Positions 13,646-47,060 of a DNA stretch of 64,000 nt are shown in pieces. The notes beneath the pieces were generated by a model that saw nothing but the letters and a program-made list of their open reading frames with translations, was not told the DNA's origin and ran no database searches. Origin of the DNA: an uncultured Verrucomicrobiae bacterium (GTDB taxonomy: Bacteria > Verrucomicrobiota > Verrucomicrobiia > Limisphaerales > JAFGQR01). The translations under genes were made by a program, and so were the position numbers. The stretch is taken from assembly GCA_963788655.1 (NCBI GenBank), contig CAWBHS010000027.1:1-64000 (forward strand). The letters run 5' to 3'. How positions within the stretch are numbered: position 1 is the stretch's first letter; each line of letters begins with the position of its first letter.

Positions 13646-13933
13646 CCGCCTTGCGCTCAGGATCACTCATTCCCTCGCTGCGAAGCCCACGCCCAACGAA
13701 ACGTCGTTCCTGTGGTGAACGTCCCCGGTGTCGTCCGTCCCGGTGCCGCGGGGGCACCCAGCACCCGGAACCCAGCTTGGAAGAACCTCCGAACCCCACC
13801 GGGGGCAACCCACCCCCCCTGTCACCCGCCGGACGGCAGCCGCGCGCCCGCTTTGCCCCCCGATCCCCGCGACCCTTATGGCGCCCCACCGGCTAAAAGT
13901 AAAAGACAAGCCTCCGAGCCGTTCGCCGGGCTC

Positions 13934-14038
13934 GTTCAACCCCTGATAGCTTTGGCGCTCCGCGCACGGCCACCCCGCCCTTCCATTTCAAGCCCCAACC
14001 GCGCGCGCTCCGGCCAAAGCTATCTTTCTTCGTTAGGC
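13934..14038 (+). other. attC-like hairpin abutting the end of the IS91-like element
   Basis: gttcaac-ccct-gatagctttggc ... gccaaagctatc-tttcttc-gttaggc; has a GTTRRRY core but no obvious extrahelical bases. Confidence 0.4.
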
Positions 14039-14452
14039 TTCGGAGTTCCACAAGTTTTTTGGAATTGCCTTCCAAGGAGAAATTGGGCAAGAGCCCAGCC
14101 AACCAGTAATATAACTGCTGGAACGGCGATAGTGCCAGCAACGACAACTTCGATTGGTTGGTGGAAACTATGTTGGTAGGAGCCGCAGTGCATGACAGTC
14201 ATCCGCGGATCGCTGGATTTGAGACCAACGAATCCGTAGCTCCCACCAGGACCCTTGATAGTCCAGTTGTGTTCGATCTGCCTGGCTTTCCAGATGCGCA
14301 GCGCTCCGATTATTGCGAACGCGCATGCATGACTGATTGGCGAGCCACAAAGACCGCACCATCATCAATTTCATCGCGCCTCCGCCAAAATCGGCCGTCC
14401 CGCAGCCACCATCTGCCAGTCCCGCAGGGACGCCCGACAATAGCCCTCCGTT

Positions 14453-42981: not shown

Positions 42982-43494
42982 ATGAACGAAGAAATCTTTG
43001 ATGTCGTCAATGAACGCGACGAAGTGATCGGCCAGCAAACCCGCCGCGAAGTGCATCGCTTGGGCCTCAAGCATCGGGCGGTTCATATTTTGGTGTTTAA
43101 CCGCAACGGCGACCTCTTTCTGCAAAAGCGTTCGATGCAGAAAGACAATCATCCCGGTGTTTGGGATTCGTCCGCCTCCGGCCATGTGGACGCGGGAGAA
43201 GACTATGACGCCGCCGCAATTCGGGAATTGCGGGAGGAGCTGGGAGTGCAGGTGCCGGCCCCACTCGAACGGTTATTCAAAATTGATTCCTGCGAGGCGA
43301 CCGGCCGCGAATTTGTTTGGGTTTACCGCTGGGCCGCGGAAGGTCCGTTGGTGCTCCACCCCGAGGAAATCGAGCGGGGCGAATGGTTCAGTCCGAACAA
43401 CGTCAGCCATTGGCTGGCCGAGCGGCCCCAGGATTTTGCCCCGGCATTTCCAGTAATTTGGAAGCGGCTACAAGCCAGGCTGGCAAGCCCTTGA
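42982..43494 (+). CDS. NUDIX hydrolase (IDI/YfcD-like)
   Basis: HRAVHI, LQKRS, GHVDAGEDYDAAAIRELREELG Nudix box. Confidence 0.92.
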   Translation: MNEEIFDVVNERDEVIGQQTRREVHRLGLKHRAVHILVFNRNGDLFLQKRSMQKDNHPGVWDSSASGHVDAGEDYDAAAIRELREELGVQVPAPLERLFKIDSCEATGREFVWVYRWAAEGPLVLHPEEIERGEWFSPNNVSHWLAERPQDFAPAFPVIWKRLQARLASP

Positions 43495-43529: not shown

Positions 43530-44129
43530 TTATGACCGTTCACGAAAATCAAGCTGATTCACCAAGGCGCCGTAACCGCGCTTCTGCAGTCGCCGAAGCG
43601 ATTCTTTGAAAGCGGTAATTTCCGCGAGTTGAATTTTAAGCCACTTCTCGTCCGCCTCATCGAACGTATCGAGTTTCAGGATATCCTCGTAATAACGTTT
43701 CGCGGACATGATCGGGCGGGCGAGATCAATGATCGTCAGCTCGCTTCCGGAATCTGAGGTGGAGTAGTTGATTCCGTAGTAGCGCTTGTGCTGCGGCAAG
43801 AACAGGAAACCCTTGCGCTTGCCTTTGAATTCGCTTTCACACCGTTTGAACGCTTCGACACTCAGACGCCCGGGGATAATAATCTGAACCAGTGTTTTCT
43901 CTGATTGAAACTGGCCCGCGGATTTGAATTGCGGCGGGTCGCAGCCTTCCACCGCGGAGTAGAGCTCAAATTGCTCCCGGTCGATGGCGGAGGAGACGGG
44001 GTCCAGGAAATTGTAAAAGTAGCCGACCGCGAGGCCCACTCCCACGACGTCCGTGTCCTGTTTATTAAGGCCATCAAAAAACTTTTCGACGGCCTTGATG
44101 CCGATTGCTGTCGCGATTTGTTCCCACAT
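43530..44129 (-). CDS. Stand-alone prokaryotic STING-domain protein
   Basis: GLAVGYFYNFLDPV, VQIIIP, KRYY, IIDLARPI, EITAFKESLRRL occur in the order of bacterial STING motifs; recognised by eye. Confidence 0.72.
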   Translation of the reverse strand: MWEQIATAIGIKAVEKFFDGLNKQDTDVVGVGLAVGYFYNFLDPVSSAIDREQFELYSAVEGCDPPQFKSAGQFQSEKTLVQIIIPGRLSVEAFKRCESEFKGKRKGFLFLPQHKRYYGINYSTSDSGSELTIIDLARPIMSAKRYYEDILKLDTFDEADEKWLKIQLAEITAFKESLRRLQKRGYGALVNQLDFRERS

Positions 44130-44439
44130 AGCTAGGTTGTCAATTATTCTCCGGTTGTCTGAATTAATGCCCGGCACCGACCGGGACGCCTGCTCCGGAT
44201 CGTCCCCCCACTCGGCGGGTCACCGGCGCAACCACGGGCTTGAACATCCACCATCGAAACGGGAACTGCCAATCCAAAAGTGCCGTCCGGGCTGAATGCC
44301 GGCTGACGGCACGAGTCCACCGAAGCGGGTGCCTTCCAAGACAAACCTTGACCGACAAGGGCTGAAGTGAAATGAATTTCCTCTCGCTAAAAACAGTCTT
44401 TAGCTGACACAACGAATAACATTAGATGCATGCTTTGAT

Positions 44440-45291
44440 ATGAAACAAAAACTCATTTCCCACCTCACCCGTTCGCTGCTTGGTCTGATTGCCGGGGCAT
44501 TGGCCCTGCCAGCCGTGGCGGCGGAACCCAAGAAACTCCTGCTGGTGACCACCACCACCGGATTCCGACACAGCTCGATTCCCACGGCGGAAAAGGTCAT
44601 CCAGCAACTCGCAGCGGAAGACGGATCGTTCACCGTGGACTTGGTGCAACAACCAAAGGGCAACAGCAGAGATCCCGAGTTCCAGGACAAGATGAAGCAG
44701 GCGCTCAGCAAACTCAGCCCGGACAATCTCGCCAAATACGATGGGGTGATTTTCGCCAACACCACCGGGGATTTGCCGCTGCCCGATCCCGATGGATTTG
44801 TGAAATGGATCGAATCCGGCAAGGCCTTCATCGGCATGCACAGCGCCAGCGACACGTTCCATAACTTCCGGCCGTACATCGAAATGTTGGGCGGAGAATT
44901 CAAAGGCCACGGGGCCCAGGCCACAGTCGATTGCATCAACGAAGATCAACAATGCGCCTGCTGTCGGCATCTCGGTTCTTCCTGGACCGTGCATGATGAG
45001 ATTTACCTGATTAAAAGCTTCGAGCGCTCCAACGTCCACATGCTGCTGGGCCTGGACAAGGAACCCAACAAAAAGACGCCCGGATACTTCCCCGTTTCCT
45101 GGTGCAAGAACGCGGGCAAAGGCCGGGTGTTCTATACCTCGCTGGGCCATCGCGAAGACGTGTGGGATGACAAATATCCGAACCGGCAGAATTCGCCCGA
45201 AGTGGCCAAAGCGTATCAGCAGCACATCTTGAACGGTATCAAATGGGCCTTGGGCCTCGTGCCGGGAAGTGCGACCCCGCAAGCGAAGTAA
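44440..45291 (+). CDS. ThuA-domain (class I glutamine amidotransferase-like) secreted protein
   Basis: TTGFRHSSI, FANTTG, GMHSASDT, GRVFYTSLGH. Confidence 0.9.
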   Translation: MKQKLISHLTRSLLGLIAGALALPAVAAEPKKLLLVTTTTGFRHSSIPTAEKVIQQLAAEDGSFTVDLVQQPKGNSRDPEFQDKMKQALSKLSPDNLAKYDGVIFANTTGDLPLPDPDGFVKWIESGKAFIGMHSASDTFHNFRPYIEMLGGEFKGHGAQATVDCINEDQQCACCRHLGSSWTVHDEIYLIKSFERSNVHMLLGLDKEPNKKTPGYFPVSWCKNAGKGRVFYTSLGHREDVWDDKYPNRQNSPEVAKAYQQHILNGIKWALGLVPGSATPQAK

Positions 45292-46133: not shown

Positions 46134-47060
46134 CTACCCAAATCGTTGCCGCGCCGATTCAATGTCGCGGGCAATTTGGACTTTCAACGCATCCAATGAA
46201 GCGAACTTCTGTTCGTCGCGTAACTTGTCCACGAAGGTCAGTTCCAGTTCCTGCCCGTAAAGGTCACCTGGAAATCGAGCAAATGGGCTTCGACCCGCAA
46301 TTGGGGCTCGGGGTGCGCAAGGGTAGGCCGGTACCCGACGTTGAGCACCGCCCGGTAGGTGCGGCCGGCAGCGCTGGCATGCACGGCATAAACTCCGTTG
46401 GGCGGCAAGGCGAGCCCTGTGGTAGCGAGATTGGCCGTGGGGAATCCCAGTTGACGCCCAACCTGATCGCCTTGGACCACCCGTCCGGCCAGCGAATACG
46501 CCCGCCCCAACATCTGACTGGCGGCATCCAATTGCCCCAGCCGAATCGCCTCGCGAATCCGGGTGCTGCGAATGGCCTGGCCTTCAAGCGACACGGCCGA
46601 CAGACTATGGACTTGGAAGTGAAACTCTTGGCCAAACTGCTTCAGCAACGCCACGTTGCCGCTGCGTTTGTGGCCGAAATGAAAATCGCTGCCCACGCAC
46701 ACGCTTTGTAGTCGCCCGAGATCACCCACCAAAGCCACGCACAAACTCCTCGCCGGATTGGCGGCTGAGTTCTGGGGTAAAGGCGAGCAGCAAGGTGGCG
46801 TCTACTTCCAGCGAAGCGATGGCCCGCAGCTTTTGGGGGAGGGAATAAATCAGGCGCGGCACGCGCGCGGGGGCGACTACTGCATTAGGATGGCGGTCGA
46901 ACGTGACCACCACGCTGAGGCCCTCGTGCTGTTTGGCGTCAGCCATCGTGGTGCGGATGATTTGCTGGTGACCCAAATGCACGCCATCGAAGAAGCCGAT
47001 GGCCAGGCACACCCGTCGTCCGTGGGGCCGCAGTTCGGTGGCCGCATGAACGGTTCTCAT
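46134..47060 (-). CDS. ribF: Bifunctional riboflavin kinase/FAD synthetase (frameshifts)
   Basis: IGFFDGVHLGHQ, VGSDFHFG, GRQLGFPTAN, NVGYRPT, VEAHLLDF. Confidence 0.94.

Follow-up and report, generated by a model that had tools for sequence, protein, structure and literature searches.

An orphan STING-domain gene without effector domain or neighbouring cyclase in an uncultured Verrucomicrobiae bacterium

The STING-only gene and its surroundings

The window analysed here is a stretch of 64,000 nucleotides from contig CAWBHS010000027.1 of an uncultured Verrucomicrobiae bacterium (assembly GCA_963788655.1), and its minus strand carries a STING-only gene at 43530..44129. Bacterial STINGs are described in PMC10732462 and PMC8748872 as effectors of the cyclic-oligonucleotide-based antiphage signalling system (CBASS) that answer a cyclase of the same operon, and the forms described there are TIR fusions, transmembrane (TM) fusions, and rarer hydrolase or peptidase fusions. 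The gene in the window is complete with its stop included, as judged from the list of open reading frames (ORFs), the translation, the Pfam match, and the family alignment: the ATG lies at 44129, the stop codon at 43530-43532, and the product has 199 residues. The motifs by which a first-pass annotation, made from the letters alone, had recognised a stand-alone STING-like protein (VGLAVGYFYNFLDPV, IIIP, KRYY, IIDLARPI, and EITAFKESL) are all present in the translation. An alternative in-frame GTG at 44177 would make the ORF 16 residues longer; since all of the aligned homologues (31/31) start at, or a few residues from, the M-W-E of 44129, the ATG at this position is taken as the true start.

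The assignment to STING is borne out by both profile and fold. The match to Pfam PF20300 (prok_STING) has an E-value of 7.3e-11 and scores 42.7 bits where the cut-off is 27.1, the genome scan giving 42.9 bits; it spans profile positions 3-136 of 137, and the cyclic-dinucleotide-binding domain occupies residues 31-178 (43596..44039, minus strand). By sequence, the profile built from the family picks up solved bacterial STINGs, namely 8hwi (2.4e-6), 7ebl (3.6e-6), 8hwj, 9lmq, 8hy9, 6wt5, and 7un8/9. The AlphaFold2 model based on the 32-sequence family alignment (mean predicted local distance difference test score, pLDDT, 86.5; predicted TM-score, pTM, 0.82) has the STING alpha/beta fold with its beta-strand lid. 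In a Foldseek search against the PDB, the 19 best entries shown are all bacterial STINGs (9lmq, 8hwi, 8hwj, 7un9, and 7ebl among them), with E-values to 1.7e-7 and TM-scores of 0.75-0.80 on the target. VIA-align gave 17.0 for the bacterial class I structure 8hwj_B (root-mean-square deviation 2.4 A, 152 of 155 residues), 15.4-16.5 for further bacterial class I entries, 12.8 for FsSTING (6wt4), and about 10 for metazoan STINGs.

The last part of the protein, residues 179-199 (RRLQKRGYGALVNQLDFRERS; 43533..43595, minus strand), is highly conserved in the family alignment and ends in a beta-strand that the model places at residues 193-198. The structural alignments extend to model residue 198/199, where the model superposes on the C-terminal portion of bacterial STING domains of known structure; therefore, this segment is part of the STING domain and no extra module. 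Outside the domain lie only residues 1 to about 25, with a predicted helix at residues 2-17 (WEQIATAIGIKAVEKF; 44079..44126, minus strand; pLDDT 72-74 in the AlphaFold2 model) that is followed by the invariant F18. This helix is conserved across the family, and its position is that of the single TM helix in the sister clade described below. No TM helix was found in the window protein before the STING domain, where the highest 18-residue Kyte-Doolittle mean, 0.71, stays below the threshold of 1.6 that we set for this hydropathy measure. The description of the N-terminal segment as amphipathic is not supported: its hydrophobic moment of 0.18 is reached by 56% of 2000 shuffles of the same residues, the family median being 0.32.

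The absence of an effector domain, in turn, stood up to closer study. Pfam and PADLOC match the STING part only, and the protein has neither a TIR domain nor a TM helix. The PADLOC model for TIR-STING effectors matched at its positions 157-295 of 310, which is its STING half, and NCBIfam holds no model for the protein (Cap12 reached 17.7 bits against a cut-off of 450). The 310 bp upstream of the gene contain no TIR or TM remnant, the best match of nine TM-STING N-termini in tblastn having an E-value of 0.18, and each of the three frames of this spacer is interrupted by stops. Elsewhere in the genome there are eight TIR_2 matches (contigs C57, C62, C91, C6, C73, C111, and C26) and none on the contig of the window.

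The neighbours are those named in the first-pass annotation, as seen from the ORF list and Pfam. A NUDIX gene (42982-43494, plus strand) is convergent with the STING gene, with 36 bp between the stop codons, and a ThuA gene (44440-45291, plus strand) is divergent from it across the 310-bp intergenic spacer (44130..44439), the presumed promoter region. A functional link to the NUDIX gene was considered and dismissed as coincidence, such a gene adjoining STING in none of the 34 other loci examined. The flanks hold housekeeping genes: besides NUDIX and ThuA, a GH106 rhamnosidase, a class III aminotransferase, KsgA, a 3-keto-disaccharide hydrolase, RibF, TruB, and a DHH/DHHA1 phosphoesterase. No Rfam riboswitch lies near the STING gene, a promoter and terminator scan gave nothing above chance on its strand (minus), and no flanking repeats beyond chance-sized matches were found. 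The G+C content is 0.50-0.56 in the gene and 0.53-0.63 in its flanks, a contrast too weak for a genomic island to be called. The same-genus genome G001 showed only scattered matches to the window in the synteny comparison, so that an empty site could not be shown.

Some further observations concern the window and the sampling of this DNA. The ribF gene (FAD synthetase/riboflavin kinase; 46241-47060, minus strand) is split into two overlapping ORFs, of which the first (46725-47060, minus strand) matches FAD_syn positions 6-99 and the second (46241-46744, minus strand) matches FAD_syn 107-158 and Flavokinase; the frameshift near 46722-46744 is either real or an assembly error. Three soil DNA runs from one study contain 7-11% of the sampled words. 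The ESM Atlas was uninformative, with recognition too low to be useful and matches to unnamed clusters.

The ligand pocket

The pocket was mapped by profile alignment to 7ebl (MySTING) with the residue roles of Ko et al. 2022 (PMC8748872). By this alignment, five of the six residues through which class I STINGs contact cyclic di-GMP (c-di-GMP) are kept, namely N40, F41, R116, Y118, and D135, and the sixth, a Thr, is replaced by R138; all six positions are invariant across the family alignment. The motif G36-Y-F-Y-N40-F41 in helix alpha-1 (44007..44024, minus strand) brings N40 and F41 to the places of N168 and L169 of MySTING (F171 in PcSTING), which serve in ribose/phosphate contact and base stacking. 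The beta-strand lid R116-Y-Y118-G-I-N-Y122 (43764..43784, minus strand) has the class I form R-x-(Y/F), with R116-x-Y118 corresponding to R230-N-Y232 of MySTING, and R116, Y118, G119, N121, and Y122 are invariant in the 32 sequences. This lid motif is described in PMC8748872 as that of a four-layer stack specific for c-di-GMP. The third element, D135-L-A-R138-P139 (43713..43727, minus strand, in the reading of the DNA), aligns D135 with D251 of MySTING, which reads guanine N2, and R138 with T254, which binds phosphate.

As the first-pass annotation had remarked, DLARPI stands where D-x-P-T-T is usual: 7ebl has D-M-P-T-T, and 8hwi and 8hwj/9lmq have D-[MI]-P-T-T. Within the family alignment D135, A137, R138, and P139 are invariant. 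The pattern D-x-[AV]-R-P, together with the remaining pocket, is also found in a relative that is operon-linked to a cyclase (locus L017, with D-x-V-R-P) and in five of six aligned single-TM relatives, while D-F-P-T-P is seen in single-TM relatives without it. On the aligned sequences, D-x-[AV]-R-P is thus a hallmark of the whole superclade, the cyclase-linked member included, and because this member carries the same pocket, the orphans appear to keep the pocket of the cyclase-linked form. Pocket homology suggests c-di-GMP as the ligand. The ligand may differ from c-di-GMP, since the phosphate-binding Thr is an Arg, and an isomer of cyclic GMP-AMP (cGAMP) is possible because the sole clearly linked cyclase is CdnG-like.

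Class I TIR-STINGs (Cap12; ElSTING 8HWJ, MySTING 7EBL, SfSTING 7UN8/7UN9, and 9LMQ) share with the window protein the R-x-(Y/F) lid, the stacking Phe/Leu, the Asn, and the guanine-reading Asp. They differ in that the window protein has no TIR domain, only 14-20% identity to them, no adjacent nucleotidyltransferase of the cGAS/DncV-like type (CD-NTase), and D-L-A-R-P in place of D-x-P-T-T; the Cap12 cut-offs are far from reached. The TM-STING FsSTING (6WT4; class II, with an R-x-R lid) likewise has N-terminal helices and no enzyme before the STING domain, but the lid of the window protein is R-x-Y, it has no TM helix, and the family profile misses 6WT4 at E <=10. The nearest TM-bearing relatives have one TM helix, whereas TM-STINGs are described with two predicted helices, their function being called unclear in PMC10732462.

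The family, its cyclases, and its mobility

A search for proteins of similar length returned 84 relatives with 43-100% identity and 192-246 residues, one fragment of 149 residues included as the exception in length, and all of them carry PF20300; the NCBI name of one member is 'STING domain-containing protein'. No fused form was found among proteins of 350-2000 residues (0 matches). An index-free search of 1.84 billion representatives gave 80 matches; two of them are weak and partial and fall in very long proteins, and all others have at most 264 residues. The 32 sequences of the family alignment have a common start and end and 29 invariant columns. Comparison with the window gene gave a nonsynonymous divergence (dN) of 0.12-0.25, and five of the seven comparisons had saturated synonymous sites. 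For four pairs of more closely related family members, the ratio to synonymous divergence (dN/dS) is 0.077-0.235.

The first-pass annotation had allowed for a broken remnant of a TIR- or TM-fused gene; what was found is a full-length protein in a family of uniform size under purifying selection. A non-functional relic of a degraded CBASS would fit the joint absence of a cyclase and an effector domain. This reading is largely refuted and can be held only as a very remote one, given the intact frame, the uniform length and termini across the 84 relatives, a dN/dS of 0.08-0.24, the inclusion of the ligand pocket among the 29 invariant columns, and the lack of any remnant of another domain upstream. 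Only one broken copy was seen among the loci, in a Flavipsychrobacter metagenome-assembled genome (MAG; L018:7998-8596), where the gene is divided into two ORFs of 84 and 115 residues and adjoins several small ORFs in a row, among them a DUF4406 one. Two divergent metagenome loci (L068:2620-4524 and L071:4374-5453) each hold two close STING-domain genes, and one of the L071 proteins has 168 residues and 73 bits to PF20300.

A quick maximum-likelihood tree of 66 proteins, with a midpoint root for drawing only, separates two clades with a Shimodaira-Hasegawa-like approximate likelihood ratio (SH-aLRT) support of 94. Every member of the clade of 14 rows has one hydrophobic N-terminal helix (hydropathy 1.7-2.8), and the 52 rows without a TM helix have a short, polar one. 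The cyclase-linked L017 lies near the base of the TM-less clade. The window protein belongs to a subclade of 15 rows, in which a neighbouring cyclase occurs in none of the 14 rows with genomic context. Four members of the TM-less clade (P0090, P0099, P0104, and P0114) have an extra upstream TM segment besides the conserved short helix.

To judge the linkage to cyclases, ORFs within 4.5 kb of the gene were annotated at 18 genome loci (155 ORFs), and of 122 ORFs picked at metagenome loci, 89 from 16 loci were run against Pfam; the 33 omitted come from duplicate loci (L033, L039, L051, L053, L055, and parts of L046 and L061). An adjacent cyclase was found at two of the 18 genome loci (L017 and L011) and at none of the 16 metagenome loci. 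The neighbours at the other 16 genome loci are housekeeping genes such as purL, sigma factors, tRNA synthetases, hemB, glmS, fadB, and thiG. In L017, a STING gene of 200 codons is followed, after an 18-bp gap, by a cyclase (PDLC00780, 271 bits) and an overlapping E2 gene (170 bits); this is a clean E2-type CBASS with a STING-only protein in the effector slot. The nearest solved structures to this cyclase are the cGAMP synthase 9woo (1.6e-36) and CdnG 8hsb (4.2e-20). The order STING, CdnG-like cyclase, and E2 is shared with E2-CBASS (CdnG, E2, and effector), whereas the window gene has neither a cyclase nor an E2 alongside. CdnG of Asticcacaulis is described as making 3',2'-cGAMP, and the CdnG systems described use Cap5-type nucleases, not a STING-only protein. 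The L017 operon (L017:2613-6067) is preceded by a gene for a DUF1016_N and SNase nuclease that matches the PADLOC candidate PDC-S02, and its record bears the label Rickettsia typhi MAG, which seems to reflect a fault of binning or naming.

The linkage in L011 may be coincidental. There, an ORF of 125 residues with two predicted TM helices and no PADLOC match (L011:5491-5868) stands between STING and a 261-residue cyclase of type PDLC00769, and in L026 a cyclase of this type pairs with a two-TM effector of its own. In a subclade of the family, a conserved gene of about 160 codons lies 0.3-0.5 kb upstream of STING at 15 loci (L044, L045-L048, L051-L057, L061, L062, and L065; for example L062:892-1377 and L052:5136-5543). 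It encodes a lipoprotein-type signal peptide ending in L-G-C, has no Pfam match, and is found in either orientation to STING and in two or more different genomic contexts; it may be a partner of that STING subclade. As a partner of the window gene it was rejected, since no homologue was found in the genome of the window by tblastn at an E-value of 0.01 or better.

The assembly of the window has 8.96 Mb in 115 contigs and is 86.4% complete with 5.6% contamination. It contains one STING gene. That no cyclase is near, as had been claimed, is confirmed: neither SMODS nor another cyclase occurs among the neighbours in the window, and none was found in the 86%-complete genome as a whole. SMODS gave no match; the DncV-like nucleotidyltransferase family also gave none, but neither did its controls. 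The PADLOC cyclase PDLC00780 was without a match, its positive control being matched in another genome (G076), the cyclase protein of L017 had none, and four cyclases associated with the family gave no tblastn match. Among the 18 other carrier genomes, SMODS occurs in four and is nowhere found in 14; two of the four are the adjacent cases and two have separate systems of a cyclase and a two-TM effector on other contigs. In the order to which the window belongs, SMODS has a background frequency of 3/60.

These counts bear on the explanation by which the protein works in trans as an ordinary CBASS effector, with its CD-NTase in the 14% left unassembled or of a type that profiles miss. The 86.4% completeness leaves room for such a gene, the relative L017 is operon-linked to a cyclase, and two carriers have cyclases on other contigs. 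Both of these distal cyclases, though, have a two-TM effector of their own, four independent cyclase queries came back empty in 8.96 Mb, SMODS is rare in the order and missing from most carriers, and defence genes that work together usually adjoin. Among sensor, sponge, and trans action, the last with a hidden cyclase appears the least likely.

Endogenous second messengers have to be considered as well. The assembly has only two GGDEF genes, both on contig C90 (197 kb; 13761-14234 and 92330-92806), and one gene for a DAC-domain c-di-AMP (cyclic di-AMP) cyclase on contig C7. C90 is a compositional outlier, with a G+C content of 0.62 (the genome averages 0.596) and a rank of 105 among 107 contigs in distance to the tetranucleotide centroid; its GGDEF genes may be contamination or acquired DNA. 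GGDEF occurs in five of 18 carriers and in 15 of 60 relatives from the order. A depletion in carriers was looked for and abandoned: 13 of 18 carriers lack GGDEF, but so do 45 of the 60 relatives, and no enrichment can be claimed.

A housekeeping receptor for c-di-GMP from the two GGDEF enzymes or for c-di-AMP from the DAC enzyme, comparable to PilZ with a STING fold, would agree with the presence of these genes and with the housekeeping context, and a solved bacterial STING is reported to bind c-di-AMP (8hwj; PMC10739871). We regard this explanation as improbable, to much the same degree as action in trans. The rarity of the family speaks strongly against a core function, the gene moves by horizontal exchange (see below), 13 of 18 carriers have no GGDEF, and both GGDEF genes of the assembly sit on the outlier contig. 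Moreover, D135 and R116 are guanine-reading positions, which argues against c-di-AMP, and according to PMC10739871 this nucleotide bound ElSTING without activating it.

The distribution of the family is sparse. Its profile is found in two of 61 genomes of the order, is absent from the sole other same-genus genome searched, and occurs in two of 401 genomes sampled across the phylum. Close homologues carry the labels Verrucomicrobiota, Bacteroidota, Ignavibacteriales, Pseudomonadota, and 'Methylomirabilota', the MAG with the last label being placed in the window's own order by genome placement. Two copies (L002:7088-7776 and L030:1067-1754) have 86.5% nucleotide identity over 689 bp, which cover the STING gene and 77 bp upstream, and their flanks do not match; therefore, the transferred unit appears to be of gene size. 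In the syntenic pair L052/L061 (STING genes at L052:5686-6258 and L061:6001-6570), synonymous divergence (dS) is 0.16-0.23 for four flanking genes, 0.39 for an adjacent small gene, and 0.75 for STING, a contrast that indicates a probable allelic replacement specific to the locus. In L005/L041, dS is 1.32 for STING against 0.60 for the neighbouring aldehyde dehydrogenase. Rarity, gene-sized exchange, and replacement under purifying selection mark an accessory, conflict-type gene and not a core signalling component. A viral origin was rejected, a pattern scan of IMG/VR viral contigs having found no relative and PHROGs no match.

It is also conceivable that the protein is a sponge or buffer that only sequesters cyclic dinucleotides and gives no output, thereby damping foreign or co-resident signalling or protecting the cell from imported nucleotides. 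It is soluble without a TM helix, has no effector domain at all, and conserves its pocket; STING is tolerated in the five of 18 carriers that have GGDEF, possibly in the window's genome too. Known sponges (Acb2, Tad1/Tad2) are likewise small nucleotide binders without a catalytic or effector domain, but they are phage-encoded and of unrelated fold, whereas no relative of the STING family is on viral contigs or in PHROGs. Furthermore, the N-terminal helix with its invariant F18, the alpha-2 surface, and the C-terminal surface are conserved beyond the need of a simple binder, L017 has the same architecture in the effector slot of a CBASS, and 14 of 18 carriers lack a cyclase and 13 of 18 lack a GGDEF enzyme with a product to be buffered. 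A sponge is therefore unlikely, though less so than the trans effector or the housekeeping receptor.

A proposed receptor decoupled from CBASS

Overall, the reading we favour, with a probability of roughly 0.45, is that the gene product is a soluble STING receptor without an effector, which is decoupled from CBASS, binds a guanine-containing cyclic dinucleotide, and has its own assembly as output. Its parts differ in strength. It is highly probable that we have here an intact orphan receptor which can bind a cyclic dinucleotide; that its output is oligomerisation of the defence type, drawn by analogy, is rather doubtful. Descent from CBASS effectors is the best reading of the ancestry, the closest relatives being single-TM STINGs and the one member, L017, in an operon of STING, CdnG-like cyclase, and E2. 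What is described here is a STING receptor stripped of its partner and effector, within a wider family set apart by the D-x-A-R-P motif of its pocket.

The receptor may be pictured as follows. A homodimer would bind a guanine-containing, 3'-5'-linked cyclic dinucleotide, with F41 stacking on the base, N40 in contact with the ligand, R116 and Y118 as the lid pair, D135 on guanine N2, and R138 taking the phosphate contact of the usual Thr. The ligand would close the lid and thereby lead to oligomerisation, as in other bacterial STINGs. Since there is no enzymatic domain, the output would have to come from the assembly itself, and the conserved N-terminal helix, placed where the sister clade has its TM helix, would be the likeliest output element. 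As no endogenous cyclase is present, the ligand is presumably non-self or conditional, and the protein would therefore be an accessory sensor of the defence type.

Several points weigh against this proposal. The assembly is only 86% complete, and because of this the absence of a cyclase is not proven; the carrier genomes are MAGs, in which mis-binning is possible. The two GGDEF genes have intact GGEEF motifs, and, if they are authentic, an effector that kills on c-di-GMP would be hard to tolerate. No source of the STING ligand has been identified. A membrane output is weakly founded, as the N-terminal helix is not of the TM kind and shows no measurable amphipathicity, and an invariant Arg stands in place of the phosphate-binding Thr. 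The surroundings in the window are no defence island, PADLOC giving only generic matches (KsgA as a methylase fold, and a NUDIX box).

The closest analogues of how the favoured receptor may work are, by analogy, the standalone STINGs of eukaryotes (choanoflagellate STINGs without a cGLR, and blSTINGs), in which STING is likewise kept without a detectable cyclase. Some of them are reported to bind 3'3'-c-di-GMP, and the sensing of foreign nucleotides has been proposed for them (PMC12424679 and PMC10732462). They are TM-anchored, whereas the window protein is bacterial and soluble, and the likeness proposed is one of working. Where PMC10732462 and PMC12424679 discuss cyclase-less standalone STINGs, they do so only for eukaryotes. 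A full-text literature search did not find a bacterial STING-only family without cyclase; Morehouse 2020 and Burroughs & Aravind 2020 may mention STING-only proteins.

A wider and more speculative scheme, which we would not expect to hold, is that the superclade forms a third class of bacterial STING, defined by the R-x-(Y/F) lid, D-x-[AV]-R-P, and one or no TM helix. Its TM-less branch would be a free-standing, horizontally traded receptor that senses the cyclic dinucleotides of invaders, be they phages, plasmids, or competitors, and self-assembles, in bacteria with little or no c-di-GMP and no CD-NTase. If this were true, the branch would parallel, in bacteria, the STINGs that choanoflagellates and other protists have without a cyclase, and sensing free of a cognate cyclase would have arisen before, or independently of, eukaryotes.

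For ligand-specificity studies, a small, soluble, natural STING with an apparent Thr to Arg change at the phosphate contact may serve as useful material. A conserved, selected, sensor-only family would show that the bacterial STING module can work without a cognate cyclase. It bears on the role of the poorly understood TM-STINGs, on the survival of defence modules after their operons break up, and on how eukaryotic STING came to be a receptor of foreign nucleotides.

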